The notes beneath the pieces are model-generated. The model was given only the letters and a program-made list of their open reading frames with translations, made no database searches and had not been told where the DNA came from. Made by a program: the position numbers and the translations under genes. A stretch of DNA of 64,000 bases from Octopus vulgaris (taxonomy: Eukaryota): assembly GCA_951406725.2 (NCBI GenBank), contig OX597819.1, positions 127,100,001-127,164,000 of the forward strand. Reading direction: 5' to 3'. Of this stretch, positions 13,973 to 52,974 are shown in pieces. Position 1 is the first letter of the stretch. The number at the start of each line of letters is the position of its first letter.

Positions 13973-14352
13973 GGAGACGCAATGGCCCAGTGGTTAGGGA
14001 AACGGACTCGCGGTCGGAGGATCGCGGTTTCGATTCCCAGACCGGGCGTTGTGTGTGTTTATTGAGCGAATACACCTAAAGCTCCACGAGGCTCCGGCAG
14101 GGGTTGGCGGCGACCCCTGTTGTACTTTTTCGCCCCAACTTTCTCTCACTCTTTCTTCCTGTTTCTTGTCCCTGACTTCCTACGCAACCGCTGAGCCTGG
14201 ATGCGCATTCACTCATCCGTCGATGCTCTCTGTGTCGAGGGTTGACCTGCTTTCTCTTCTGCGGGTCTTACGAATAGCAAAGGACCACGTTTCGGACTTC
14301 TCCCACCTTGCGAGCTCTGGGACGAAGACCGTTCGCTCAACAGCAACAACAA
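13973..14352 (+). mobile_element. SINE family B, tail type 1, with TSD
   Basis: tRNA-like head GGAGACGCAATGGCCCAGTGGTTAGG...TTCGATTCCC, (CAA)n tail, TSD CAACCGAAGT on both sides. Confidence 0.92.
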
Positions 14353-15000: not shown

Positions 15001-16261
15001 ATGTGATTCTTTAATTATCATTAGGTATGTTCATTACAAAAACCGTTTCAACATCAGAATCAGTTTTCATCAAATGGGACATTATTATTTCAAGGCTATA
15101 ATTAGCCTTGAGATTTCATGCTTCTATCATACTGCGAGTGTTGATTTTTCCCAAAGCGAACGAAAAATCATTCACTGCTCATTCCAACTCATTCCAAAGG
15201 CCGTTTCCTTAAATTATTTCTGGAAGATTCTAATTTGGCATGCATATTTGAGATTTTCCATGACAACATTATTAATAATAAGCAAAACATCAAATCATAT
15301 AGCCCCTGATTTTTGTTGAAAATAAATCGGTTCTCCTAGCAAAGGATGAACTGTATAAATTCTACCAAAACTATCTGAAACCCATTCACATTGTTCCACT
15401 TTTGTCTACGTTGATTAAGTCGTATTGTACCAAGAGTAATATTAAAATTATTACTATAACCAATTGCCTTCATTTTTCTTCTTCTATTAAGCTATAAGAC
15501 TTTTGAGGTGATTGCGTTCGAGTGCTTCTGTATATGCTTTGAATACAATAATTTGTTGCTTGGATAAATGTAATGGCAACCATTCAACGGCCTGAGAGTT
15601 TTGTTGAATTGGAAATTATAATATCTATGGCCATTAAATATTAATATATAACATAATAATACATGCCACATATATAATATCTATAAATAATATACACCCA
15701 CATTCGCGCATGCGTAAACACATACACATAAATATTACATACATATATTGTGTTAATAGTTGCAAAGACTTACTTCTACTAAAGATTCTCTGTTAGATAT
15801 GTCTTGTGATTGATGAGCCGACTTGATTCGGATTAAAATATAAAATATTGTACATATTTAAAATTAAAACTTTCTAGTACCCGATTTGTTAACGATTTCT
15901 AGTACCTTTCATGTTAACGAAAGGGTATCAAAAGTTTTTGAGTGATGAAGTGAGCATGTAAAAAAAGAAAATTATTGGGAACTTCAGGTCTAAATTTGAT
16001 GTTAAATCCTGCTACAAAATAAGTAATAAACAGGAAACTAATGTAAAATATTTTCTGGTGAGCATAGCACAAAAAATGTGGTAAGTTTTGTTTAACAGCT
16101 GAGCTAATCATTTCTTCACAGGGTGTGCAAGAATCCAAGGAAACTAGTAATGGTCTGATTTGGCAATAAGTATCACATAGGTTAGATTCTAGACGAGGTC
16201 AATAAACTTAATTTCCATGAAAACTGAAGACTTTAACGCTTAAGATTGTTCCCTTTATCTA

Positions 16262-17410
16262 TCAGGTCATCCCATAAGTTCTGTCCGAATTTTGAATAAA
16301 GAAAACAAGTGATCGAATGTTATATTTAATTGAAATTTAATCATCAATGTACTTTCTCTGATTATCTATGACTTCCTTCCATCTATTTACAAGCTTTTTA
16401 ATCCCATCAATGTAAAACTCTTTTGGTTTCAAAGCGAAGAACTCTGAAATGTCAGGTTCGACCTCCTCCTGGCTTGCGAAAGTTATGTCCCCCAAATGAT
16501 TCTGTAAAATACGAAACAAATGGTAGTCGGAAGGATCAAGGTCGGGAGAATAAGGTAGATAAGGAAAATTTACCCATACAAGCTCTTCGATCTTCTGTGA
16601 TGTGATCTTTGCAGTGTGGGGTTGCGCATTGTCCTGATGAAACATCACTCCTTTTCGATTCACTAAAGTGGTTCTTTTTTTCTTCAAAGCTTGGTTCAAA
16701 CGCTCTAATTGCTGACAGTAGACTTGAGCATTGATTGTTGCATTAGATGGTAACAATTCGAAGTGAATTACTCATTTGCAATCCCACCAGATAGTGAGAA
16801 GAACCTTTTTCCTATGAAGTTCCCTTCTCGGTTGTTGTTGAGCTTTTTCTCTTTTACCAAGCCACTGTTTACGACGTTTAACTTTTCGATAGAAGATCCA
16901 TTTTTCCTCACCAGTCACAAGTTAATCAAGAAATGACGAAATGAGTTCGCGAGAATGGAGAGAAGAGCAGATGTCAACTCGGGATTTGCGGTTGCTTTCA
17001 ATGCCCCAAGGAACTTATCATCAAACTCAACTGGACGTCCTGTTCGATCTTCATCTTCAAGGCTGAAATCTCCACTTGTGAATTTTGCAAACCATCTTCT
17101 GCAAGTTCTTTCATTCGAACATTCTTTGCCATAAACTGAGTGTATGTTTTGAGTCGCTTCGGATGCAAAGTTTCCTTTTTTGTACTCTTAAGGCATTATG
17201 TGCCACAAATGCTCTTTGGATACTTCCATGTTAAAAAGGGTTTTAATCAAAGAAATTTAATTATATTATTCTGTAAAATAATTAATTAGTTTAAATGTAC
17301 ACAAATGCATAAAAATAATTTTTAATTCCATTAGACATTCTAAAATACTATTAAATTTCTTTCAATTTTAAAAAAAGGTAAACTCGGACAGAACTTATGG
17401 GATGACCTGA
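16262..17410 (-). mobile_element. mariner (DD34D) element with internal deletion
   Basis: Matching TIRs TCAGGTCATCCCATAAGTTCTGTCCGA and a TA TSD on both sides. ORF 16337..16756 carries HQDNAQPH and YSPDLDPSDYHLF. Confidence 0.95.
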
Positions 17411-17448
17411 TAGGTGTAAGGAAGAGAGAAGGGGAAGGAGGTCGGGAG

Positions 17449-20294: not shown

Positions 20295-20615
20295 TGCTGT
20301 GCTGCTGTTGCTGTTGAGCTCGCAAGATGGGAGAAGTCCGAAACGTGGTCCTTTGCTATTCGTAAGACCCGCAGAAGAGAAAGCAGGTCAACCCCCGACA
20401 CCGAGAGCATCGACGGATGGATGAATGTGCATCCAGGCTCAGCGATTGCGTAGGAAGTCGGGGACAAGAAACAGGAAGAAAGAGTGAGAGAAAGTTGGGT
20501 CGAAAGAGTACAACAGGGGTCGCCACCACCCCCTGCCGGAGCCTCGTGGAGCTTTAGGTGTTTTAGCTCAATAAACACACACAACGCCCGGTCTGGGAAT
20601 CGAAACCGCGATCCT
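20295..20615 (-). mobile_element. SINE family B, tail type 1, 5'-truncated
   Basis: Reverse complement of the 13973 copy from the B box onward. Confidence 0.9.
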
Positions 20616-23921: not shown

Positions 23922-26617
23922 TTGTTGTTGGCATCCTTTTTGTCTAGGGAGACAATGGAGTTGCGCATAAAATAATCTAGTCCGGCTTTTACATTTCATG
24001 TCCTAATACATCTGCTGTGGCTGTGTAGTCCTATCCTGGACAAACACTCCTTCTGGCAGGTGCCGCAAATGTATCGAAGACTTTGTCTGGCTGGTTGTAA
24101 TGTCATACTTTCGTGTTGACGTCTTTTCTTGTCTTTCTATTTCTCCTCTCTATGTCACTCCTTTGTGTTCCCTCTTTTACGGTACGTTGCCAATCTCCAC
24201 AGTTGCTGGCAACTGCTTCCCAGTTGGTAATATTGATGTTGCAGGCATTCATGTCCCTTTTGCAAACATCCTTGTATCGTAAGAACGGTCTTCCCACAGA
24301 CCTAGTGCTCCTAGCAAGCTCTCCGTTGAGCATGTCCTTGAGGATTTAGCCATCTTCCATACGACTAACATGTCGAAGCTATCTCATACGTCTTTGTGTG
24401 AGGAGTGTAAACATGCTTGGTATTCCTGCTTGCTTGAGGACATCTTTGTTGTGGACATGATTCTGCCATTTGATGCGAACGATTTTCCGGAGGTAGCGCA
24501 GGTGAAAGATATTTAGGCGACGTATGGCGTCGTATGTCGTTTGTATGGCGTCCAAGTCTCACTTTCATACAGTAGAGTGCTAAGTACACATGCCCGGTAA
24601 ATCTTCATTTCTGTGGTCTTGGTCAGCTTATTGTCCCATGCCCGTTTGGAGAGTTGGGCCATCACAGCAGCTGCCTTGCCAATGCGTATATTGAACTCAG
24701 TATCAAGGGATAGGTTGTAGGTGACGGTAGAGACAAGACAGGTAAACTTTTCTACCTCCTGTAGTCTGTGGTCTGCAATATGTATGTTTGGGATGGTTGA
24801 CGTAGCCTGACCCATGATTTTGGTCTTCTTGAGGCTGATAAATAAGCCAAAGTTTCCACATGCTTGCTCAAAACAGTGGATGAGCCTTTGTAAGGCTTCT
24901 TCTGTGTGTGATACCAGAGCGGCATCATCAGCAAATAGCATCTCCTTGATCAGGACGCTTCTGATTTTGGTCTTGGCATGCAGACGCGAGAGATTGAACA
25001 GTTTCCCGTTACTTCTACTGTGCAGAAACACTCCATCATCTGATGTCACAAAGGCATGTGACAGAAGCAGCGAGAAGATGATGCCAAATAATGTAGGAGC
25101 AAGGACACAACCTTGCTTTACCCCATTTTTTATTTGGAAGGCGGCTGATGCTGAACCATTGTGCTGTATGGTACCTTGCATATCATCATGGAAAGATGTG
25201 ATGATCCTCAGCAGATTTGCTGGACATCCGATTTTTTGGAGCAGGATGAAGAGGCCTTTTCTACTTACCAAGTCAAAGGCCTTTGTCAGATCAATGGAGG
25301 CCATATATAATGGCATTTTCTGCTCTCTGAACTTTTCCTGAAGTTGGCGTATGGAGAATATCATGTTAATAGTTGATCCGCTGCTTCTAAAGCCACACTG
25401 CGATTCTGGATAAATTCGAGAAGCAAGCAGTTGCAGCTTGGACAGGATAATGCGAGCAGAGGCCTTTCCAACAGTGCTTAGAAGAGATATTCCACTGTAA
25501 TTGTTACAATCACCAAGGTCACCTTTGTTTTTGTAAAGCGTAATGGTGTTAGTATCCCGCATATCCTGAGGGATTGTACCCTCTTCCCAGCACTGACACA
25601 GAAGCTCATGAATGTGCCGAAGCAGGATGGTGTTTTTGCCGGTTTTGATGATATCTAAGGGGATGCCGTCTTTTCCCGGAGCCTTGTTACTTTCTAGGGA
25701 GTCAATAGCCTTGGTGAGCTCTGCTATAGATGGCAGACTGCCAAGTTCACACATGACTGGCAATATCTTGATACCCTCGATTGCAGCCTCAGCTGAGTAG
25801 AGATCCTGGTAGTACTCCACCCATCTATCCATTTGCTTGCTTTGGTCCTTGATGAGATCCCCAGAGGGGCTGACTAGGTTGCGGATGGACCGAGGGCCTT
25901 CTTCAAACCACCATACATCCCACGGGTGTCGCCACTGTCAGCAGCTGACTGAATACTCTGACAGATTTCCTGCCAATACCTATTTGCACAGCGTCTGGCA
26001 GTCAGTTGGGTTTTATTTCTTGCCTTTCTTAGTTCTTCGAGTGACTTTATAGAAGAATCACTCTTGTATTACATCAGAGCTGCACGCTTTGTTTCGATAG
26101 CTCTTGCCAGCTCTGAGAGCCCAGCACTGAAAAAAATCTGAGTTTTGCCATTCTCTCATGCCGAAAGTATCTATTGATGTGGTATACAAAGCTTCCCTGA
26201 TATAATTGCCCCTACTTTCAGTAGAGGTGGTTGGGCAGCTACTGAGGGCAACTGTGATAGAAACAGCAAAACATTGTCGCAGTGTAGGGTCGGAGGTTCT
26301 GGCAGTGTTAATGCGTGGTCGGCCCATTTTCTTGGAGTGATGGACTTTTTAGGCAGAATCCTCACCCTGCTTCTTATTAGTGAATGATCTGTGTCACAAT
26401 CCGCGCTGTGGTAACTACAGGTCAGTTGAACAGAATTCAGAAAGGGTTTTCGTGTAATGATGAGATCCAGCTGATGCCAGTGGTGAGATCTTGGATGTCT
26501 CCAAGATGCCTTGTGGGATGTCTTGTTGGCAAAGAATGTGTTAGTGATGCACAGGTTATGGTATGTGCAAAATTCAAGTAGTCTCTGGCCATTGTCATTC
26601 ATGTTGCCAATACCAAA
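23922..26617 (-). mobile_element. RTE-clade LINE, 5'-truncated and frameshifted, with a long TSD
   Basis: EN remnant (NDNGQRLL, HWHQLDLI, DCDTDHSL). RT ORF 24513..25832 (DLTKAFD, GVKQGCVLAPTLF, LFADD). RTE-type 3' end CTCCATTGTCTCCC...GGATGCCAACAACAA. Direct repeats at ~23852-23921 and ~26618-26680. Confidence 0.93.
24513..25832 (-). pseudogene. Reverse transcriptase domain of the RTE LINE
   Basis: 439-aa open segment with canonical non-LTR RT motifs. Flanking segments lie in other frames. Confidence 0.92.
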
Positions 26618-26673
26618 ACACATACACTTACATATATATACGATCGATTTGTTTCATTTCCTGTCTACGAAAT

Positions 26674-28815: not shown

Positions 28816-29001
28816 TATATTAATTTAGCATTAGAATTCTTCAAGTTGTATAAAAATTGTTTGCATCATTCGAAAGAGAAATAAATTTTGCATAAGGTGT
28901 AAAAGATATAAATAATTTGTATGGTGTTAGTAACAAAATATTTTGTAAGAAATAGAACTTTCATCGTTAGTCTTAAATATATTTTCGCCGGTGTATATAT
29001 C

Positions 29002-31507
29002 TCAAGTCATCCCATAAGTTCTGTCCGAATTTTGGATAAAGAATCCAAGTGATCAAATGTTATATTTGATTGAAAGTTAATTATCAATGTACTTTCCCTG
29101 ATTATCTATGACTTGCTTCCATCTATTTACAAGCTTTTTAATCCCATCAATATAAAACTCTTTTGGTTTCAAAGCGAAGAACTCTGAAATGTCAGGTTCG
29201 ACCTCCTCCTGGCTTGCGAAAGTTGTGTCCCCCTAATAATTCCGTAAACTATGAAACAAATGGTATCCTGAAGGAGTAAGGTCGGGAGAATAAGTTGGAT
29301 GAAGAAAATTTTCCATACCGACCTCTTCGATCTTCTGTGATATGATCTTTGCAGTGTGGGGTTGCGCATTGTCCTGATGAAACATCACTCGTTTTCGATT
29401 AACTAAAGCGGCTCTTTCTTTTTTTCAAAGCTTGGTTCAAACGCTCTAATTGCTGACAGTAGACTTGAGCATTGATTGTTGCATTAGGTGGTAACAATAT
29501 AAAGTGAATTACGCCTTTGCAATCGCACCTGATAGAGTAGAACCTTTTTCCCATGAAGTTCCCTTCTCGGTTGTGGTTGAGCATTTTCCCTTTTACCAAG
29601 CCACTGTTTACGACGTTTAACATTTCGATAGAAAATCCATTTTTCGTCACAAGTCTATCGAAAAAGGGTGAAATGAGTCTGCGAGAATGGAGAGAAGAGC
29701 AGATGTCAACTCGAGATTTGCGGTTGCTTTCGGACAATACATGAGGCACCTATTTTCCAAGTTTAGGAATCTTTCCACGTTGTTGAAGATGACGATGAAC
29801 TGTTGTATGGTTTGAAGTAAGCTTTATTGCCAATTCTTCAACTGATAATGACGGATTTTCTTCAAGTAATGCCTCATGGAGCTTATCATCAAACTCAACT
29901 GGACATCCTATTCGATCTTCATCTTCAATTTTGCAAACGATCTCCTGCAAGTTCTTTCATTCAAGCACTTTCCCATAAACTGAGTGTATGTTTCGAGTCA
30001 CTTCGGCTGCAGAGTTACCTTTATTGTAATCATAAAGAATTATATGTGCCTTAAATGCTCTTTGGATACTTCCATGTTGAAAGGGTTTTAATCAAAGCAA
30101 TTTTAGGGTGTCCACGAAGTCTGGGTAAATGGAATAAAATCATAACATAAACAAATATAAGAAATAATAATTTTCCTTTTTACTTTTGTTTAAATTAAAT
30201 AAAAAAAATACTTTACTTTTCTAAATTTATTTGTTGTTTTTTCTACAGACGATCGAATGATGGCTCTGTCTAAAGAAGAAAGAATCCCAGATCGAATGAT
30301 GGCTCTGTCAAAAGAAGAAAGAATCGAGTTATTATTATTAAGTGGACGAGAGGGATGGTCTTATCACAAAATTGCGGAAGAATTTAATCTTCGACACCCT
30401 TATAGGCAACCTATTTTTTTTACTACCGTCGGGAAATTGATCAAGAAACTTAAAGAAACCGGCAGTGTTTTGGATAAACCCCGTTCCGGGCGACCAAAGA
30501 TTTCAGAAACGAGAGGCTGTCATGGCTAAAGTTTCTGCTAGCCCAAAGAAATCACTTCGTCGGACATCAACGGTGTTAGGTGTTCCAAAACCAACCATCC
30601 ACAAAATGCTGGTTGAGGAAAAGTTTCATCGACACAACCTACAGATATTGCATCACTTAAATGAAGACGACCCTGATAAACGAATGTAGACGTGCGAATG
30701 GTTTTCAGATAAATTGGATGAAAATATCAATTTTACGAAAAACATTGTTGTTCAGTGACAAAGCTACGTTTTATGTAAATGATGAGGTCAACAGACAGAA
30801 TCTTCTATACTGGTCTCGAGGTAATCCACATTGGATGGATCCATCCAAACAGCAAGGCAGCAAAAAGGTGATGGTGTGGTGTGGTTTGTGGAAAGCTCAT
30901 GTTCTAGGACCCTTCATTGAACATGAAACGGATGAGACTTATGTAAACATATTGAGCGACAAATTAATATCTCAAATTGAGCCCCTACCCATTTTGCCAC
31001 AACTGTTAGAGATTGGCTAAATAACACTTTTCCTCACTAGATTGGAAGAAGGGCTCATATGGAAAGGTCCCCTCGTTCACCAGACCTTTCTCCCCTTGAT
31101 TTCTTTTTCTGGGGTATGTTGAAAGAGAATGATTACAATAAAGATTACAGATTTAAAACACAGTGTGCTGAAATTGATAGTAATGTAGACTTATTTAATC
31201 AAGTTCACCTGAATTTTGCTAGGTACATCAAGTTATGCATTGAAAAATGATGGAAATCACTTTGAAAATATTATTTATTAACATTATAATTAAATAAAAT
31301 TGGTTTGTTTTAAAAGTATGTGTTAATCCCCATGTACGCAGACTTTGTGGACACCTCTATTATTTTGTAAAACAATATTGAATTAGCTTAAACGTACACA
31401 AATGCATAAAAATAATTTTTAATTGAATTAGACATTTGAAAGTATTATTAAATTTCATTTGAATCTAAAAAAAGGTAAAATTAGACAGAACTGATTGGAT
31501 GACTTGA
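29002..31507 (-). mobile_element. mariner of the same family as 16262, interrupted by a nested transposon
   Basis: TIRs TCAAGTCATCCCATAAGTTCTGTCCG and GACAGAACTGATTGGATGACTTGA. Transposase pieces at 29399..29950. Sequence either side of 30105-31357 is collinear with 17240-17410. Confidence 0.92.
30105..31357 (+). mobile_element. rosa/DD41D-like Tc1/mariner element nested in the mariner
   Basis: TIRs AGGGTGTCCACGAAGTCTGGG / CGCAGACTTTGTGGACACC. Motifs RSGRP, FSDKATF, VMVWCG, SPDLSPLDFFFWG. About 40 residues lie between the inferred second D and the third D. A ~40-bp tandem duplication lies at 30250-30325. Confidence 0.85.
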
Positions 31508-31528
31508 TATATATAATCTATGATATTC

Positions 31529-34500
31529 TAGTAGGTTTCAAGTTTATAACACCTTGGTATCCCATGTGATCTCATTTTATATGCCTAAGACATATGCCCA
31601 AATGCGGTCGGCCGAATTACGACCCTCCCTTGCATGGGACAAAGAGTCATCTCCGGTGCAAGTAAGACTTAGTGACTCAATGGGTTCTGACAAGACCAGT
31701 GTCGGGCGCTCAACTTTGCGTCCGACACTGACGTACTACAAAAATAAGAAAAATATTTTTAGATTAGAGTATAATAGTTATTCCCTGATGATAAAAGGCG
31801 CTCAGCTCCCACTGGACCTAGCACATGACCCGATCGATGAAGTCCGGTCTACTGAATTAGAGACGGACCGAGATAGGGTCGCTAGGGACCTCCCCCATGA
31901 TATTCGTTCTTTTAATTTAGAAATAGATCGAGAGGAGGTAGTGGGGGTATCAAGCCCCACTCCAGTTGGGAGCGAATTTTCGCTTACCATTCCTTGCGCG
32001 TCATGCTCCGTAGCCTGTCCGCTATGTCCTCTGCGCTTCTCCTCCCCCCATGATTGGGGGGAGCACTTAGTCTGTAGACATGGCATTAAGCCTGTATACA
32101 GTTGCAGTAAATGTGATAGGGAAAGCGGGCACCTCCATTCCATGAGGTGTCACGCGGGTCGGTGCGATGGTGGTGCATTTAGAGCGCCTGCCCCTAGTCC
32201 GGCTCTAGTCTCCTTCGATTGTGACCACTGCAGCCGTTCTTTTTTGACGGCTGTAGGTCGATCGCAGCACATTCGCCATAAACATCCTGCAGTGGCAAAT
32301 GCCCGCAGGATTGCTGCTCGCTTAGAGCAAATTGCGAAAAAGCGTGCCGATCGGGCAGCCGCTGCCGAGGCAATAGGCCAAAGACGCAGGAGCTGTTGGT
32401 CTGACGAGGAAGTAGCGGTCCTCGTCGAAAAGGAGTCTGAGCTGATAAAGACAGGGGTAAAGCAGATCAATGCAGCCATTGCACGGTTCCTGCCGGGCAA
32501 AACGGCCAAACAGGTAGGATCCAAAAGGGCTGCTCTGGCCAAAAGGGCTCGTACGAGTCATCAAGGGTCAGAGCAGTCCGCGACCAGTTACCAACCACAA
32601 ATCGGGGGAGGATCCCAGTCTAATTTTGACTGGAAGGATCGCTTCCTCGATGCTGCTTGTCCCGGGCATACTCGTTGGTCTGCAGTCTTCTCCGAGGCCC
32701 TTTTGAAACTCGTGGAGGACGGGACTGCGGCTGCCTGGGGCTCGTTTGAGAGAAATGTAGAGGACTGGGTGGAGCAGTATAAATCGTGTAGGGAGGTAAC
32801 CACCAGGAAGAATATAGTCAGAGATAGCAATAGAAATACTAGACTTAGGCGACGGGGTAAGCGTCATGCTTACGCCCGCCATCAAGATCTATTTAAGAAA
32901 AATAGGAAGAGGCTCCTTGCAGTTGTGTTAGGCGAGGACAAGGAGCAGGAATGCCCTATTCCACTCTATGCTATAGAGGAATTCTATAGAGGGAGGCTTT
33001 CTGCTCCAGGCTCTGAGGTTGATCTGACGAACTACCCTTCCTCCTCCCAGGTTGAGAGCGACTCCATTTTGAGTCCGTTCTCCGTGGAATAGATTAAAGT
33101 TCAATAGACGTAGGATGAAGATCTCCTCAGCGGCGGGTCCGGATGGTATCACTGTTAGTGAAATCAAATCAATGGACCCAGCTGTCCTTGCAAATATATG
33201 CAACTGCATGTTGCTGGCGGGTAAGGTACCCGATATCCTGAAGCGGGGTAGGTCTGTTCTCATATCAAAGAGATCAAACGACCCTTACGATCTTGCAAAT
33301 TGGCGACAATCACGATATGTTCTGCGGTATATCGTTTATTCTCTAAGATAGTCGCCAAACGCATGCTTCAGGTAACTTCCCCGAATCCAAGCCAAAGAGG
33401 CTTTATCCGCGCTGACGGCTGCAGTGAGAACTCGTTTCTTCTTCGACAGCTCGTCAGTCGCGCGATGGGGAGGCCAGCACGACTGAGAATACCGCGGCTG
33501 GAGGTTGCCTTGGATCTCTCCAAGGCCTTTGACACGGTCTCGCACTATCTGGTATATGCGGGACTGCGGAGGCTTGGGTTCCACGAGCACGTTATAGTGC
33601 TCGTGGAGGGGATCTACGAAGGTAGCACTACCAGATTCTCAGTTGACGGGCAACTTAGTGAACCCATAGAGATTCGTAGGGGTGTTAGGCAGGGGGACGC
33701 GCTCTCGCCGATCCTCTTCAACATTGCGACTGACCCGCTGTTAGATGTGTTATCCGGCTGTGGGGATTTGCATGTTGAGGGGATCCGGATGGATGGAATC
33801 GCGTACGCTGATGACATGGCCCTAGTTGCGAAATCGCGCGATGGTCTCCAGGCTCTTATAGACAGATGCCTGGAGTTCTATTGCGCGGTTGGACTGGGGC
33901 TTAATGTCGGTAAGTGGGCGTGGTTCTCCATCCGCGGCTGGGGCAAGTCCTACCTTGTCAATGATAGCACCCCGCCGAAGATTGATGGTATCACTATTAA
34001 AAAGGTAGAACCGGGGGATAAGGTTTTATATGTAGATGTAAGCATCCCCACGTGGACATTAATCTCAAGTCGGGAGTTTGATTTAGATTCAGTGGGGCAG
34101 GTGTCACTGGACGTTGATAAAATGTGCAGGGCTCCGCTGAAACCCCGACAAAAATTCCTCTTGCTTCAACGGTACTATCTGCCTAGACTCTTTTACGGTC
34201 TGGTGCAGGCGCTGCCGTCAAGGGGGATACTTGAGAGGCTGGACACGGCCATCCGCGTGGGGGCTAAAAGAATGCTTCATCTCCCCTACTCTACTTCCTC
34301 TTCCTTCCTTTATAGCAGCGGGCGGGACGGAGGGTTAAGTCTTCACCAAATGGTGAGACTGATACCAAAGTCCGTCATCCGTCGTAACCTTCGCCTTTTG
34401 ATGTCAGAATATGTCTCTGTTAGAAAGGTTGCTGACTCTGCAGGATTAGCCGAACAGAACCAGCAACTAATAGTTTCCTTCGACTCGCCTTTACTTCCTG

Positions 34501-35477
34501 CGGACGCGGCCAAATACGACCCTGACATCTGGCTGGTGCATTCCCATCGATGGGTGGCCCAGCCGGTGCAGGGGGTGTGTGCGGCGGCATACCGTGGGGA
34601 TGCTATAGGCAATAGTTAGATCAGTAGGCCGGGTAGGATTACGGAGGGGTGCTTCTTGAGTTTACTCAAGATGCGCTCCAACGACTACCCTACCCGTGAA
34701 ACCCTGACACGTGGACTCCGTGGGGACTCCACGTGTCCGAGGTGTAGAATAGGGACAGAGACTATCTCTCACGTCAGTGGAGTTTGTGGTTCTCTTAAAG
34801 GGCCACGGCTCGCCAGGCATAACAAAATGTGTGACCTGGTGGCGAAGGAGGCTGTTGATCATGGTTGGAGTGTTAGTGTAGAGCCGTCTTACATTATAAA
34901 CGGCTCTAGGCTGATACCAGACCGGGTCTTTAGTCGTCCGGAGAAGGTGGTTGTCGTCGATGTGACTATCAGATTGGAGCAAGGGGACGCCTTGAAAGAG
35001 GCTGCCCTCGAGAAAATGCACAAATACCGTCCGCTCGAACAATTGCCTTCGCAGGAGTTTGACTGGCCGGTGGCGGTGCATGGACTCCCAATCGGTGCCT
35101 GTGGTGCCTGGTGCCGGCCTGCGAGTCTAACACTAGACGCCTTGGGCATAAAAGATAAGTCATTTCGACGACTTCTCAGCCGGACGGCTTTAATTTGTAC
35201 ATACAATATGTTGAGGGACTAGCCCTCAAATATAAGCCAATTTCCCCACGGACCCCAACATAACACCCCCTCAGTGAAGTCCTCAAGTTTTTTTTTTTTA
35301 GACTGAGAGGCTGGTTTGTTGGTGACCCTGCAGTGTTTTTTTTTCTCATCTGCGAGGGGTAGCAAGGCTTTAGGGCCTAGCTTCGGTGGGGTGGAGACCT
35401 ATTGAGAAAAGCAACTGGTCGCCATAGCGTCGACTGTAGCCGTGTACAGTCGCCCCTATGGCACCCAGAGCGAGCTG
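31529..35477 (+). mobile_element. R2-clade-like (R2-A architecture) RLE non-LTR retrotransposon, apparently full length but mutated
   Basis: CCHH-CCHC-CCHH zinc fingers, Myb (WSDEEVAVL), RT (DLSKAFD, GVRQGDALSP, YADD), CCHC knuckle (CPRC...HVSGVC), RHN and PD..D..EK..KY endonuclease. Visibly more GC-rich than its flanks. Element ends are inferred. Confidence 0.88.
31554..35222 (+). pseudogene. R2-like single ORF (ZF-Myb-RT-RLE) broken by stops at ~33090 and ~34617 and a frameshift at ~33305
   Basis: ORFs 31554..33092, 33115..33351, 33300..34619 and 34656..35222 join into the canonical R2 domain order. Confidence 0.9.
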
Positions 35478-35602
35478 ATGACATTCCCCGGACCCTAAGT
35501 TAAGGCATGTGTAAAATTTGAATGAAATTGGTTGTGTAGTTCTCAAGTTTTTGGGAGACAGACATACAGACAGATACATTCTCAGTTTTATATATATAAA
35601 GA
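35478..35602 (-). mobile_element. 5' fragment of a Lep1-like Helitron
   Basis: Minus strand A|TCTTTATATATATAAAA...TGTCTGTATGTCTGTC...CAACCAATTTCATTCAAATTTTACAC, a typical Helitron-associated 5' end. Confidence 0.65.
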
Positions 35603-38550: not shown

Positions 38551-39950
38551 GCCCACCGGCTCACTGTCTTCGGCATGATGTTCCTTACTGATCTCAATGC
38601 TTGCAGCGTTCCTCTGGTGTGTTGGTGTTTATGCTTCAGCAGAGCAGCACGCTTCGCCTCCATGAGAGTATTGAGTTCTTTCACATTCGCCTGAAACCAG
38701 TCATGCTTCCTTTTCCTCCTCCTCCTCCCAAAAGCCTACAGTGCAGTGCTATGGATGTTGTCCCTGAGAGAGGCCCATCTCTGCTGAATATTGCCTTCTT
38801 GGTGCTTCTACAAGAAGGGCGTTTTCCAGTGTCTTGAGGAATATATATATGTCTTAGTTGGTTGCGGAAGTAGTGATGCGCTGCTCGCATGGGGGCTTGA
38901 CGCAGTGCATCAATTTTTGTTGGAGTTTGAGATTTGAGATTACAGCAAACCAAGGAACAACATACAGAAGATAGATGGACGGTGTGCAAATGGTTACTGC
39001 TTACAACTATGTGCAGATATCCAGCTGTCGTTTGACACAGGCAACATTCGTGGAAGGTATGAGGGTATCAAGATAGCCATCGGTTCAACCCAAAGAAAGA
39101 TAGCACCACTCAAATCCAGAACAGGAGAAGTTATTAAGGACAAAAGAGAACAGTTGGAGAAAAGGGTGGAACAGTATTCCAAATTCTATGCTAAAGAAAA
39201 ACCCCATCTCGAATAGTGCGCTAGACACTGTGGGGGATCATGGAGCAGTTGGACGCACTGCCAACTGAGCAGAGCTATTGATGACTTGTCCACTGGAAAA
39301 GCACAGGGTTTGGATGGAATCTCATCAGAGATTATCAGATGAGCAAGGAGAGTTATACTTAGCCACTTGCTGAAGCTACAGTGCTGGGAGGAGGGATCAG
39401 TATCTCAAGACATGAGAGACTGCAACATTGTCACCCTATATAAGAACAAAGGAGACAAAAGCGGCTGCAATAACTACCGAGACATCTTGCTGTTAAGCAT
39501 CGTTGGGAAATTCTTTGCCTGCGTGGCTCTAAATAGGCTACAGAAAACCGCTAAGAGTGTATACTCCGAATCTCAGTGTAGTTTCAGAGCAAAACACTCC
39601 ACCATCAACATGATATTCTCTCTCCGACAGCTACAGGAAAAGTGTCAAGAGCAAAGACAACTACTTTTTATCACCTTCATCGACCTCACAATAGTCAGTA
39701 GAGACCGCCTGTTCAAAATCCTTGCCAAGATTGGCTGTCCTCCAAGACTTCTCAGGATTGTTCAATCATTGCACACGTACATGAAAGGCACCGTTCAATT
39801 TGATGGTTCTTTTTGCAGGAATTCAACATACGCAGCGTTGTGAACAGGGTTGTGTACTTGGCACCTCCCTATTTGGCATCTTCTGTGCAGTAATGCTGAA
39901 ACATGCATTTGGTACATCAACTGACGGTTTTTACCTCCACACCAGGTCAA
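38551..39950 (+). mobile_element. Decayed RTE LINE fragment with an inverted 5' segment (38551-38975 on the minus strand)
   Basis: The plus strand gives RCANGYCLQLCADIQ...GNIRG and RT ORF 39367..39843 (IVTLYKNKGDK, QLQEKCQEQ). The minus segment gives the upstream linker (SLVCCNLK...QQRWASLRDNIH...HDWFQ...KTVSRWA). Confidence 0.85.
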
Positions 39951-42696: not shown

Positions 42697-43417
42697 ACCC
42701 TAGAAACAATGTGGTATATAACGCTATTATTTAAAATTTATCTCTGTTCACTAGAGGCCCTAAGATGAATCAAATTCTACGCATCCAATTATTCATCATA
42801 AGTAAACAACAACCAAAATCGCTGCATATTGATAGGTGCGAAATGCCGCAAAAACACGAAACCAAGAGGTAAAAAATGGAAGGTTTGAAATTCCATTTGC
42901 CGTAGAGCCTGGAATTGTAAGGAGTGTTTTTTTTTTACCTATGTGTGTTTAAATCACTGTTTAGAAATTTTGGGGGACTGGCTGTCAATCACTGTTCTCT
43001 GCAACGTCACTTCTACTGGGTGGTTACCCCTCACTTATACGGTACAAGATCACTTCCATTGGGTAGTTAAGATTGTCTTTCACCTGTTTGTAGCTATAGA
43101 TCTTTCAGATCTTAAGGAACATAGGGTTAAGACGTGAGTATGGTTTCCTTTAAGTTCTCCGCAACATGTAAGTCTTGTTATATGTAGTATTATTTGGATA
43201 ATATTCTTTTAGTAGTGCACACTGTCTATATTTTGTTAAGTCTAGATGTTGATTTAAACGACAAATATTTTTATTCATTCTATAATTAAGGGTAATTTGA
43301 CTTGTTCCCAAGTAACGAGCTTGTCGGCCGTTCAATTATTACGGATTATTTATTCTCTTTGTAGTTAGCACGAACTACTATTTGTTTTTATTATAGATGC
43401 ATGTATATGTATGTATG

Positions 43418-44147
<730 letters not shown>

Positions 44148-44270
44148 CATACTTACATATATGCATATATTTGTAATAAATAGATCCGTGTAATAAGGTT
44201 GAACAAAAAAGAGTATTCCATCTGGCGAGAGTAAAACTATTGTTTTATGCGATCACCTCACATGCATAAA

Positions 44271-45853: not shown

Positions 45854-48800
45854 TCAGGATTTGGGCACCAAGGCCCATTCGAGCAGAGAGTTATTGTTTG
45901 CGGAGACATATCCGGGTGTGGATGGTTTGTCCGGTACTGTTTGAAGGAATTTGTCCAAAGACTTCTTGAATTTTGTGTGGTCAGTTTCTTTTTTGACGTG
46001 TCCTGGTGTAATGTTGAAGAGAGCGGGTCCAATTGAGGTGAAATAGTTGTGCCGTATTGTCGTTATGTGATGCGATTTAGATTTTTGTTGTGGACGGATG
46101 GCACGTGGTCCAAGCCTTGGATGCATTTTGAAGGTGATGCCAACATCATTCGGACAGTGCTGATGGAATATTTTCCACATCATACAGATAATGTAGCGTT
46201 CACGGCGTCGTTGGAGTGAATACAATTTCAGCTTCTCTAGTCTACCCCAGTAGTCAAGGTCTGACATGCCATCTATCTTTTTTGTGATTGACCTTTGGGG
46301 AGCTTCAATTCTCATAATATTTTGTTTTGTGTAGGGAGACCACAGTGGACAGCAGTATTCAAGGTGGGGTCGGGCAAAAGTGGAGAAGAGAAGGATAATA
46401 GCGTGGGAATCTCTCGACTGGAAGGTTCTGAGAATCCAGGAACACATTCTGCGGGCCATGTCAACTTTGCTGCTTATATGTGTAGCCCAGCTTATGTTGT
46501 TGTCCACTGTTACTCCCAGGTCTCTGATGTTGTTGGATGCCATGAGAATTTCTCCAGAAGGAAGAGAGTATGGGAGTTTCAGAGCGTCCTCCCTTCCAAA
46601 GTGGATCAGTTCGAATTTGTCTTCATTTAGCAACATGTTATTCTTTTCCGCCCATTGGACAACAGCTAGTAGGTCTGACTGAAGGTTTATTCGGTCATCC
46701 ACGCCATTGATGACCTTCTGGAGCTTGGAATCATCAGCGAAGGTTCTGATGTTGCTGTGTTTGATGGTGTCAGTAATATCATTTATGTAGATGATGAAGA
46801 GAAGTGGGCCCAACACAGTGCCTTGTGGGACACCACTGCTGACTTTGGCTGGGCTGGATTTGACTCCTTCGACTACAACATGTTGGGTTCTGTTAGAGAG
46901 GAAGCACTTGATCCATTGCAGCAGCTTTCCAGTGACACCAATATTGGACAGCTTTCTCAGAAGGATCTTATGATCAACCCTGTCAAAGGCCTTGCTGAAA
47001 TCAAGGTAGATGACATCAGTGTTGGAACCCTCTCCCAAGGCTCTCAAAATGTCATCAAAATGATGCAGTAGCTGCGTCAGGCAATCTCTCCCATTACGGA
47101 ATCCATGCTGGTTGGGGTTCAGCATATTATGACTCTCAAGGAAGTGAGTCATACGCGATCTCAGCACCCTCTCAAATACCTTGATGATATGAGAGGTGAG
47201 TGAGATTGGACGGTAATTCACGGCAAGCGATTTGTTTCCTTTTTTGAAAACTGGGACAACAGACTGGGATAGAAGGTCTTCTGGTATATATCCAGCATCC
47301 AATGAGTTCCGCCACAGATTGGCTAGAGGGGGTGCAAGTTGGTTTTGACACATCTTCAAGACACAAGCAGGGAACCTATCGGGACCTACTGCTGAATTAT
47401 GCTTCATTTCCTTTATTGCTGCTAAGACATCAGGAGCGCCAAATGTTATGTCCGATAAAGTGTATTGGGGAGTAACATCACTGATACAGCCCAGATCAGT
47501 CATATCAGGATTGCTGAAAACAGAGCAATATTGTTTCTGCAATATTTCTCCCATGGTTTTGGCATTGTCTTGAAGAATACCATTTTCATCAATCAGAGGG
47601 CCAACAGTAGAACCAGTGACTCTGTGTTTTTTTGCAAATGAAAAGAACACTTTGGGATTGAGTTTGATCTTCTCAATGGCCCAGGCCTCTTCAGCTCTTC
47701 GCTGACTATTGATGATAGACATCATGTTGTTTTGGAGTTTATGTTTTTTAATCTCTAGCGACGAGATGGCAGTCAGGTTGGTGTGTTGCTGTTGACAGTA
47801 TTTCAGCATGTTGATCTTTTTGTTGATTCTTTTAATTTTCCTTATGAGAGATTTTCTATTTCTAGGGATTCGACACTTAGATTTGTTTGCAGATCTTAAT
47901 GGGGTGTGTCTTGCACATATGTTCGTGATGGTGTCTACAAGTGACTGCCAGGACTTTTTGATGTTAGTGGGTGTGTATGTGTGCGTGAAGGACCAATCGA
48001 CTTGTGCAAGATCATTATTGATCGCTTCCCAGTTTGCATTGTGGAAATCCATAGTGTCAAATGGATGAACAGGAGGGATGACATTTGTTTTGCATTTTGG
48101 CCAGTGAAATCTCAGATCACAGAGAACCATGTCATGGTCGGAGAGTAGGGTTTTCTCCACTGCAATATTGTGGATAGTATCAGTGTGATTGCTGAAAATT
48201 AAGTCTAAGACGTTTTTGTGACATCTCGTTGGTTCGAGTACCAGTTGGGACAAGAAGAAGTCATCCATGAAGTCAAGAAGCGATTCCACTGCCTCCTGTC
48301 AGGGGTTGAGAGAGAAGAACCTGGCGGCAGACTGTTTGTAGACCAGTCAACCCCGGGAAGGTTGAAATCTCCCATCATTAAAATGTTGTCAGGTTGACAC
48401 TGCTGAATGAAACACTTTATGCTGTTGAGGCATTCCTTGAAGCATGGTAGGGGCGTTTGGGGTGGTCTGTAGAGCCCAACTACTATTAAGTTGTTGGTTT
48501 GACTGAATACAGCGACTGCTTCGCAGTATCCATTCGAAAATATGTTCATGGCTTCTGTTGAGAATGAATCATGGACATAAATGGCAGTCCCACCCTTTCT
48601 TCTGCCAACACGATCAGCACGAATGGTTTTGAAATTTTTAACTTTCACCTCGGCTTCCAAGTGGAGGTCACTAAGATGGGTTTCAGTGAGGACGAAGAAA
48701 GGGATGTGGTTTGGATGGGCCTCGACCCAGTCTTCCAGGAATCTTATCTTCCATTTTTGTGTATTGGTGGAAGGGCTGATGCCTTGGGCATTAAGCAGAA

Positions 48801-48870
48801 ATGTTGAGGCGAGAGTGGATGGTTTTAATTGTTTTGGTGATTTGTTAATTTGATTGCTTTTTAATGGCAT
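45854..48870 (-). CDS. LINE ORF2 (APE endonuclease + reverse transcriptase), ~1000 aa, split by a single frameshift at ~48293
   Basis: EN motifs LTETHL, RKGGTAIYV, YRPP, GDFN, LDL, SDH. RT motifs NYRPISLT, QHGFR, LDFSKAFD, SGVPQGTVLGPLLF, FADD. C-terminal YSLQRRRERY. Confidence 0.9.
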
Positions 48871-50078
48871 GTGTAGTGGGGTAATAGTGGTGGATGGCGG
48901 TGGGTGATAGCTCGGATGTTTTTTTCCAGTTCTTTTGCTAGATTCATTATAGCTAAAAAAGTGGAAGAAGAGGTGGTTTCCTGTCTAGGGAACCGCAGGT
49001 GACTGTGGCCGCGGCTATTTTTATGTGAGTGGTTATCTTTAAATGTCCGACGAGTCCCCGGGAGATGGGTAAAGGGGCAATCCCTGTGCAAACACAATCT
49101 GTCTCGCTGGGAATAGCGGCAGATTTGGGGATTCCTTGTTTGAGATATTGGTGGTTGTGGTGATGTTGTATTATGGTGGTTGCTGTTGTAGTTTGTGGGG
49201 ATAGAGCGTTTTGTTCCAGGTAAATGGGTGAATTTGCAGTCTCTATCAGTGCACAGTCTATGGCGAAGAGAATATCGGCAAATGATGGGGTTTCGAGTGG
49301 GTGTGTAGGTGCGTGTGTGTGTGTGAGCTGTGAAAGGTGTAGATGATAGTTTGAAGTTTTGGCGACCTTTGTGACCTGTAGGAGGTAAATTCCTTGAGAT
49401 AGCATTAGTAGTAGTAGCTGTAGTAGTAGTAGTAGTAGTAGGTAGAAGAGATGTTGACGGTGGTAATGATTGAGGAGGTCGATTCCAAGACAAAGATGTT
49501 TGTCGATATATAGTGGGAGTAGTACTAGTAGTAGTAAGCAGAGGAGATGGTGTTGACAATGATGATGATTGAGCTGCTGGGGCAGTGAAAGGAAGGGGTG
49601 GTGCTTCCTGCTGTGTGACCCTGATGACTGGGGGGTCAATCGTTTCATTTAGCAAATCGGCCATTGTAGATGAATCAAGGAGTGGTTCATCCTGTTGTTG
49701 TTGTTGTTGCCTCTGAGGTTGTTGCTGCTGAAGTTGTTGTTGTTGCTGTAACTGTTGTTGTTGTTGTTGTTGCCGCTGAGTTTGTTGTTGTTGAGGTTGT
49801 TGTTGTTGTTGTTGCGCCGGTGATGCGTTCGAAGAGAAAACACATCTCAGTTTATCGAAGTGTTTATTTATTAATTTAAAAGCAACTTCGATTTGTTTTA
49901 ATTTATTTTGGATCTGCTGTTCAGATCGAGTTTGCAAATGGTGAACTGTTCGTTTAGCAATTTCGTTCAGACACGAAGCACCTATGCTCTCTGTTTCGGT
50001 AAGGCCATGCCATGTGTTGATAAGAACGTCGACTTCATTATCAGACCAGTTTTTGTTGGATTTTTGGTGGCTAGCCAT
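48861..50078 (-). CDS. LINE ORF1: N-terminal Myb/SANT-like helix bundle, polyQ and T-rich linker, two tandem CCCH-type zinc fingers
   Basis: WSDNEVDVLINTW...RSEQQIQNKLKQI. CRYSLRHRLCTDRDCKFTH and CRYSQRDRLCLHRDCPFTH (C-x8-C-x4-C-x3-H). The stop overlaps the ORF2 start (ATGCCATTAA). Confidence 0.8.
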   Translation of the reverse strand: MASHQKSNKNWSDNEVDVLINTWHGLTETESIGASCLNEIAKRTVHHLQTRSEQQIQNKLKQIEVAFKLINKHFDKLRCVFSSNASPAQQQQQQPQQQQTQRQQQQQQQLQQQQQLQQQQPQRQQQQQQDEPLLDSSTMADLLNETIDPPVIRVTQQEAPPLPFTAPAAQSSSLSTPSPLLTTTSTTPTIYRQTSLSWNRPPQSLPPSTSLLPTTTTTTTATTTNAISRNLPPTGHKGRQNFKLSSTPFTAHTHTRTYTPTRNPIICRYSLRHRLCTDRDCKFTHLPGTKRSIPTNYNSNHHNTTSPQPPISQTRNPQICRYSQRDRLCLHRDCPFTHLPGTRRTFKDNHSHKNSRGHSHLRFPRQETTSSSTFLAIMNLAKELEKNIRAITHRHPPLLPHYTCH

Positions 50079-50106
50079 TCTGGTTGATATGTTTTATTAA
50101 ATGTTT

Positions 50107-51234: not shown

Positions 51235-51365
51235 GGCAACAACAACAACAACAACAGCAACAACAACAACAACGCCGTTACTAACTCTAGTGCCTCCAAC
51301 ACTACGCCACTACCAACATCATCCGTATCGTCGTCGTCATCAACATTGTCGTCATCATCATCATC

Positions 51366-51396
<31 letters not shown>

Positions 51397-51455
51397 CCAT
51401 CATCACCACCATCATCACCATCATCATCATCATCATCATCACCATCATCACCATC

Positions 51456-51487
<32 letters not shown>

Positions 51488-51692
51488 CACCATCATCACC
51501 ATCATCATCATCATCATCACCATCATCAACATCATCATCACCATCACCACCATCATCACCATCATCATCATCACCATCATCATCATCACCATCATCATCA
51601 CCATCATCATCATCATCATCATCACCATCATCGCCATCAGCATCACCATCATAGCCATCATCACCATCATCGCCATCATCATCACCATCATC

Positions 51693-51735
<43 letters not shown>
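51235..51735. repeat. Compound (CAA)n/(CAT/CAC)n trinucleotide repeat
   Basis: Read directly; it produces the polyH/polyD/polyS/polyM ORFs. Confidence 0.95.
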
Positions 51736-51736
<1 letters not shown>

Positions 51737-52974
51737 ATTTTACTTCGTCTTTCTCCTCCGCTTTCGTTGCTGCTTCTTTGATTCTCACATCCCCCATCAG
51801 CAACAAGAACACGAACAAAACCATAGCAACAGCGACGATGACGACAACAAAAACAACAAGGGGATTATGAAATAAAGCAAGAAAAGAAAAAAAGATGTAT
51901 TATCCAGATTTCCATTCTGTCGATCATTATCTCACAGTGCTGACAGGCGCTAAGACAAATGGGTATATATACTGTTCATGTATGTACACATGTGTGTATG
52001 TACTTTGAATGAATATATTTGTATGTATGGCTATATGCATATATATTATTATACATACACCCAACCACAAACATACGCATTTATACATATATACACATGT
52101 ATACATGTGTGTATGTACTTCGAGTGAATATGCTTGTTTTTGTGGGTATGTGCATATATATTATTATACATACACCCACACACAAAAATACGTATTTATA
52201 CATATATACACATGTATACATGTATGTATGTATATCCATACATAAAATAGAAACTGATGTATGAATATGTATGAATGTATCTACCTATTTATGTATATGT
52301 GTGTGTGCGTGTATGTGTGCGTGTGTGTATGTGTGTATTTTATAATAGGTCTTACAAGAAGAAGAACTGAAAACATAATAAAAGTTTAGAATGAAGTTTA
52401 ACTTGTAAGTTAAATTCCATTAAAGACAAAAATAGTTGCAGTAAAATTGACATCCAGTTAAAAACTACGGATTTCTCAGATGAAAGATGAAATCGTTTCC
52501 AAAAGGGAAATGTAGCAGTTCGCTTAAAATGATATTATTGGCATAACCATTACGAAAAGCAAAATTTCGGTATTCGGTCCATAGTAAATTATGTAATGTA
52601 AGTTAGTTAAATTAGAAATATATATGCCCCAAATTAAAGAATATGTATAAATATATACATATATATATAAATTTTATTTGTTAGGGAATAAAAATTTCTT
52701 TTTTATTTGGTGAGAGGTAGGAGTCTACTATCTCTAAATTAATATATATATATATATATATCAAAATAAGCAACAAGGATATCCAAGAAAGAGTAGTACA
52801 ATTCTTTCGTGCTACTTCATTTTATTAAACACTATAAGTATTACATCAGTTTTAAAATGTCGAGCAATCTTCAGCCATTTATAGAATTTTCCAATTAAAC
52901 GGACAATGCACATTCTTATCCCTATTCCATTTACCAACATTACAAAGAGGGTAGATATATAGACAGAGAGGTTA

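Follow-up and report, generated by a model that had tools for sequence, protein, structure and literature searches.

A dead R2 lineage-A-derived retrotransposon outside ribosomal DNA in an octopod, from a family that may have relaxed its target choice

Introduction

R2 retrotransposons as a rule insert into ribosomal RNA genes only. When a retrotransposon with the architecture of a lineage-A R2 element lies away from ribosomal DNA (rDNA), is it a stray from a family that inserts into the 28S gene, or does it belong to a family that has changed its target choice? This question is raised by a copy in the 64-kb stretch of DNA that we analysed (the window). The RNA-only gene insertion methods of today rest on lineage-A R2 proteins. 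Loss of 28S specificity has been described for few R2 families; in the literature that we consulted, the clear cases belong either to clades C and D or to groups other than lineages A and D. If the element has indeed left 28S, it and its 28S-specific sisters would make a natural close pair for finding the determinants of specificity in lineage A. A dispersed family would let the fingers, the Myb domain, the loop 6a of the reverse transcriptase (RT), the endonuclease and the 5' ribozyme be compared directly. Should the family turn out to be 28S-specific, the copy is an ordinary stray and adds a new member to octopod R2.

Results

The GC content is about 52% across the R2 element and 30-45% over the bulk of the window. 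The sequence-only reading of this DNA had claimed an element with three N-terminal fingers plus Myb, RT, a CCHC knuckle and a restriction-like endonuclease, and every one of these domains could be located (Table 1). The 12 zinc ligands were the same in all 27 sequences aligned, and no loss was obvious in the DNA-binding region. When the C-terminal part was searched against PDB with phmmer, it matched turtle R2 (9nl2) with 312 bits, finch R2 with 299 bits, the 8gh6 and 8ibw chains, which we take to be R2Bm, with 203 and 195 bits, and LINE-1 with 36 bits. For the N-terminal part, R2 entries were the sole PDB matches below E 0.001, and finch R2 aligned with it across all fingers and Myb (E 1e-24). 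An AlphaFold model of the N-terminal part, where lineage A has a co-folded ZnF3:2, had a pLDDT of 89.8 and a pTM of 0.47. A fold search with this model gave only three matches at E<=0.001, all of them to R2Tg or R2Pm, and their TM scores were low (about 0.3) because the domain positions in the model are uncertain. R2Pm (9nl2) and R2Tg (9nl3, 9dou) are the best matches in both sequence and fold among solved structures, but they are only about 32-35% identical to the element, and they are strictly 28S-specific and intact.

Table 1. Features of the element and of its junctions (positions in the window).
Feature	Position	Strand	Basis or remark
R2 lineage-A-derived non-LTR retrotransposon, ~3.88 kb	31597..35477	+	contigs, domain matches
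ORF pieces (n=4)	31524-33092; 33073-33351; 33252-34619; 34620-35222		ORF list
Candidate HDV-like ribozyme core	31621..31686	+	descriptor search
Parts of the candidate ribozyme core	P2 31621-25/31682-86; P3 31627-29/31636-38; P4 ~31645-77; J4/2 31678-81
Weak likeness to 28S just downstream of the R2 site	31598..31619	+
ZF3 (CCHH)	32016-32081	+
ZF2 (CCHC)	32103-32165	+
ZF1 (CCHH)	32220-32285	+
Myb	~32394-32552	+	N-terminal ZF3-ZF2-ZF1-Myb block spans 31983..32552
RT and thumb	33109..34450	+	RVT_1 E 3.6e-22
YADD of RT	33804	+
CCHC knuckle	34734-34787	+
RHN motif	34815	+
PD..D..K restriction-like endonuclease	34917-35027	+
CCHC knuckle-RHN-endonuclease block	34734..35222	+	terminal stop codon 35220-35222
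3' UTR, structured	35223..35477	+	long hairpin 35415-35468
Repeat of very high copy number, at the 3' junction	35478..35602	-	bin depth 51,000-324,000
Repeat piece at the 5' junction	31528..31591	-	ends in CTAG
Decayed Tc1/mariner-type element	30105..31356 (about)	+	terminal inverted repeats

The element thus carries RT, CCHC and restriction-like endonuclease homologous to those of R2, three N-terminal fingers in the CCHH/CCHC/CCHH order of lineage A, and a Myb domain, which is the published criterion for separating R2 from Utopia (PMC13188248). With Myb present, the element does not fit Utopia/NeSL, Hero or R4, in which an R2-type Myb is lacking. Upstream of ZF3, at 31806-31838, we noticed a motif, LP..LA.DP.D, that by eye is also present in octopod and bivalve lineage-A R2 elements of the published Table S2; it is possibly an unnamed N-terminal module of mollusc R2 proteins.

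Phylogenetic analysis bore out the proposed descent from R2 lineage A, in agreement with the three fingers. In a FastTree phylogeny of 170 RT rows (rows were dropped if they exceeded 2000 residues, started to match late or covered a short segment), the element fell within a mainly three-finger clade with a support of 0.92. A quick tree of the region from RT through the endonuclease (40 rows, 704 columns, quick search, no bootstrap) placed it in a 22-row clade with an SH-aLRT of 97, apart from the one-finger clade and together with R2Pm and a bird protein. The RT-only quick tree made with IQ-TREE (50 rows) did not resolve the placement inside R2. Sponge proteins sat apart from the element in both quick trees. 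A LINE fragment of the window (24516-26653) served as outgroup. The earlier reading had asked for an RT phylogeny; the FastTree phylogeny and the tree from RT through the endonuclease set the element with lineage A, among rows that include no named NeSL, Utopia, Hero or R4 protein.

The copy is dead and near full-length. Premature stops are at 33090, just upstream of the RT block, and at 34617, upstream of the CCHC knuckle, and frameshifts are at about 33105 and 33309. The claim that the copy has only a few lesions stood as far as these two stops and two frameshifts go, but the loss of a codon ahead of the first aspartate of RT must be added, as must missense changes within conserved motifs. 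In the sequencing runs described below, all or nearly all of the listed contig depth had a sense codon at both stop positions, and both stops are therefore private to this copy.

The 5' limit of the element was set from contig ends. Contigs of two runs, X1 and X7, both start matching at 31597, and three contigs of run X6 and two of X7 have a loose end behind 31591. The 5' junction therefore lies at about 31592-31597, and not at 31529 as first proposed. At the 3' limit, the sequence from 35478 onward matches an uninterrupted repeat consensus, which continues otherwise upstream. The element has no poly(A) tail, and a search for a target-site duplication at both junctions returned only chance words of 5-6 nt, none of them convincing. 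On the minus strand, at about 35602, the far end of the 3' repeat lies between A and TC; by its end motifs the repeat presumably resembles the 5' end of a non-autonomous Helitron. There is about an even chance that the repeat piece at the 5' junction (31528-31591) is the other half of this same Helitron-like repeat. The mariner taken at first for a direct neighbour of the element is in fact nested in a MITE, the right part of which ends at about 31510, and a repeat piece of about 80 nt lies in between. An uninterrupted copy of the same MITE is found at 17157-17412.

The copy lies outside rDNA. The target words AAGGTAGCCAAATG and TAGCCAAATG have zero occurrences on both strands of the 64-kb window, Rfam gave no match in the window at gathering score, and no rRNA match was found at the 5' or the 3' junction at E<=10. 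These empty searches confirm that neither a 28S site nor rDNA flanks the element. Because the copy is not inserted at the 28S AAGG/TAGC site, we file the element as R2-derived and not as canonical R2. This copy is also not at another site in 18S or 28S rDNA, where R8 and R9 are found; like the element, these two are R2-related and off the canonical site, but they remain in rDNA.

Both ends of the element were examined for structure. The descriptor that detected the candidate HDV-like ribozyme core was built with this sequence, and the 5' ends of published mollusc R2 elements, already in view; it had a single match over both strands of the window, and of 2000 shuffles 1 also gave a match. Loss of the ribozyme core by 5' truncation had been considered, and was dropped once the descriptor matched 31621-31686. 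Rfam gave no match for an HDV-like ribozyme at the 5' end, and no 7/7 upstream partner for P1 was found in 30900-31614. By eye, the 5' ends of published mollusc R2 elements, as far as Table S2 displays them, have an HDV-like pattern in which the 28S strand immediately upstream is the complement of the P1' arm (PMC13188248); the P1' arm of the element has 2 mismatches in 7 to the 28S strand, also by eye. The sequence at 31597-31620 is non-28S and common to the X1 and X7 contigs; in published octopod R2, this is the place at which the ribozyme borders on 28S. The X1 contig has zero differences from 31597 on and may be this very locus.

The weak 28S likeness at 31598-31619, which was chosen post hoc, has a score reached by 0.2% of 12,792 windows of 40 nt. 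It may stem from an old target duplication that the 5' end absorbed. R2-1_SLy begins with a target duplication of this kind (PMC13188248), and a model for such absorption has been drawn (Fig. 8 of PMC3774820). At the other end, the folding of the 3' UTR had a z of -3.15, and 2 of 200 shuffles were equally stable.

We then compared the element with published octopod R2 elements. Table S2 of PMC13188248 holds four lineage-A elements flanked by 28S, R2-1_OVu, R2-1_OSi, R2-1_ORu and R2-1_ECi, from Octopus vulgaris, O. sinensis, O. rubescens and Eledone cirrhosa, so that the element cannot be said to stand for an undescribed lineage. Identities were counted by eye over the first 400 characters of each cell. 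R2-1_OVu was identical to the element at 33 of 50 positions over ZF3-ZF2 and at 58 of 103 over ZF1-Myb; over ZF3-ZF2, R2-1_ORu and R2-1_ECi had 30/50 and 29/50, and R2-1_OVu and R2-1_ORu had 31/50 with each other. The DNA-binding region is thus about 60% identical to octopod lineage-A R2 (by eye), as against 22-39% to 26 aligned database relatives. The octopod elements also have the motif upstream of ZF3, the spacer region and a similar 5' P2/P3/L3 pattern in common with the element, and R2-1_ECi, at 3818 nt, is near to it in length. On these sequence likenesses, the element is a close relative of the published octopod R2-A lineage, whose known members use 28S.

There are also differences. The published elements are 28S-flanked, whereas this copy is not. 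The element has a short 5' UTR and P4, a changed P1' arm and, ahead of P2, an extension of 24 nt or more that is not 28S, and neither its 5' nor its 3' UTR has an evident match in the 400 visible characters. Because its UTRs have no evident match to the four octopod R2 elements in this part of the table, we regard the element as a distinct family. Protein searches returned no octopod R2, and the best RT match among the 150 listed was 41% identical. Among the metagenomes scanned, a protein pattern gave 112 matches, of which 0 were confirmed, and a 5' DNA pattern gave no match. The match of about 60% to octopod R2-A makes the suggested mollusc host an octopod, with which an Argonauta match of a LINE in the window weakly agrees. 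If the host is O. vulgaris or O. sinensis, the element would make a second lineage in addition to the canonical R2; otherwise it is possibly the host's own R2.

The stretch was partly present in 16 of 24 listed sequencing runs, from 8 studies and with 5 organism labels, and four of them (X1, X2, X6 and X7) were used for the analysis of the family. No RNA run was listed with the stretch, which does not bear on expression. In all four runs the element was covered far more deeply than the unique flank. The median depth on the element was 918 in X1, 464 in X2, 136 in X6 and 1207 in X7, and the depth of the unique right-flank contig was 12 in X2 and 8 in X6. The ratio of element to flank, from the lowest bin to the median, was 10-39 in X2 and 6-17 in X6; these ratios are rough, and the summed depth is not a copy number, since overlapping contigs inflate the sum. 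Divergence among the 25 contig pieces listed on the element ranged from 0 to 14%: 15 differed by 8-14%, nine by 5% or less and one by an amount in between. The longest of the 25 was 328 nt, and the longest pieces listed in the four runs included no long, deep and uniform contig within 85% identity. For comparison, many R2 relatives in other organisms (a selected set) lie on single contigs of 4-5 kb, and rDNA-resident R2 copies of Drosophila differ by less than 0.2% (PMC2718515). These results show that the family is multi-copy and heterogeneous, with at least two subfamilies.

Loose ends and joints of the contigs were also inspected. None of 24 listed loose ends, out of 1146, was 28S-like, a weak null because the abundant repeats of the flanks make up the bulk of the list. 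Fifteen of 70 joints were listed. Joints that skip a short stretch and are marked 'between: not known' (for example 34683-34760, in 4/4 runs) may be stretches that have diverged, and for this reason they were left out of the shared deletions. One joint, from 31705 to 35197, connects the 5' UTR to the 3' end in X1 (depth 101) and X6 (depth 4.7), and is likely an internally deleted, non-autonomous derivative of the R2 family; internally deleted R2 derivatives are known (PMC3414825).

Discussion

On balance, we lean to the view that an octopus lineage-A R2 has left 28S, either as a generalist or by retargeting to a Helitron-like repeat, while sisters about 60% identical to it stayed 28S-specific. 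The element is a new family of the known octopod R2-A lineage, and the family is probably dispersed outside rDNA. As for how the family came to be where it is, we are about half persuaded that this dead octopod lineage-A R2-derived copy outside rDNA comes from a family that spread with relaxed target choice. Diverged and heterogeneous copies are found, and a dispersed, ageing family therefore fits better than a uniform rDNA family. For the same reason, a lone ectopic insertion from a uniform rDNA family, which the sequence-only reading had named as the outcome that would count against it, is less likely.

Such a family would descend from a 28S-targeting octopod R2-A ancestor. From what is known of R2 biology, one protein would bind the structured 3' UTR, and its endonuclease would nick the target DNA. 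The RNA would be copied from the nick by target-primed reverse transcription, in this case into a high-copy Helitron-like repeat. Relaxed targeting would have led to tens of dispersed copies or fewer, of which this one then decayed. The compact HDV-like 5' fold would have been kept, and its P1' arm may have drifted from the 28S complement when the family left rDNA.

Several findings stand against relaxed targeting, among them the DNA-binding region without obvious loss. The closest published relatives, as given in Table S2, are all at the 28S site, and over ZF3-ZF2 the octopod R2-A elements are as close to the element (29-33/50) as to each other (31/50). The element could therefore simply be the usual R2 in an octopod not yet sampled. 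As the main rival reading, it is quite possible, if short of probable, that the family is or was 28S-specific, that the copy is an off-target fossil, and that its sisters are strays or degenerate copies in old rDNA. The well conserved fingers and Myb, the 28S insertion of the nearest published relatives (PMC13188248) and the weak 28S-like remnant at the 5' end all agree with a 28S-specific family. Strays of 28S-specific R2 were found in 5 of 8 Drosophila species examined (PMC2718515), degenerate copies persist within the rDNA of Bacillus, a stick insect (PMC4370867), and a review warns that extant locations mislead, since rDNA copies are purged (PMC13580325). However, a 28S-specific family sits poorly with the contigs, in which neither a long, deep and uniform piece nor a 28S-like loose end appeared among those listed, with the two P1' mismatches to the 28S strand, and with the 3' end of this copy, to which no 28S remnant is attached.

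We judge a switch of the family to another specific target, within the high-copy Helitron-like repeat, to be unlikely. The 3' junction does lie inside a very abundant repeat, which would be a safe target, and by eye 5-6 of 8 letters ahead of the 5' junction agree with those of the repeat ahead of the break. Yet this is a single site, such repeats are abundant enough for random insertions to land in them, and the X1 and X7 contigs diverge from the window sequence at 31597. The insertion site is also without likeness to 28S, and the DNA-binding domains are still close to those of 28S-specific relatives. With one junction pair known, the new target that had been suggested for this element gains no direct support. 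That the copies multiplied as DNA after one stray insertion, as Helitron cargo or by segmental duplication, is very improbable: the element does have, on the minus strand, a TC end to one side and a CTAG end to the other, and the depth (which cannot rank parts) has no 3' bias, but both stop codons are private to this copy, other contigs do not have its 5' junction in common, and the CTAG end is without the usual following T.

If target choice was relaxed, as we favour, the element has few counterparts. Clades C and D are known to include R2 families that are generalists (PMC5035012). Among these, R2NS-1_SMed and R2NS-1_CSi are likewise R2-derived families outside rDNA, but they belong to clades D and C and to flatworms, whereas the element is of lineage A; their non-specificity was read from the flanks of young copies, and that of the element can only be inferred (PMC5035012). 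R2-1_CGi of the oyster (formerly R2NS-1_CGi) and R2NS-1_PMi of the bat star also have copies off 28S, and with their few copies they are cautionary cases; one of the two oyster copies of R2-1_CGi proved to be at 28S (PMC5035012). The non-site-specific R2 homologues of sponges and the cockroach BLAG are off the canonical site, but outside lineage A (PMC13188248, PMC7650587). In the open literature, the scope of our search, we came across no account of an octopod R2 family outside rDNA.

Other features of the window

No host exon was evident in the window. Mariner-type MITE and transposase fragments with a common end sequence are at 16256-17412, 28994-29749 and 29990-31510, and one of the mariner-type MITE copies is split by a second mariner. 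A near-intact LINE with two ORFs is on the minus strand at 45857-50093, its endonuclease-RT ORF being open for 814 codons. This LINE has 1603 relatives at E<=1e-100, and the top identity among 120 listed matches was to an Argonauta protein (56%), the only row with a species name. Fragments of other RT-encoding LINEs, which we take from their appearance to be RTE-like, are at 24516-26653 (minus strand) and 39343-39840 (plus strand). A 300-nt repeat occurs at 14018-14317 and 20316-20615 in opposite orientations, 95% complementary and with 6 kb between, and the pair is probably two copies of a SINE-like repeat. Long arrays of TA-rich and 9-nt-unit simple repeats occupy 43260-44180 and 51235-51950.
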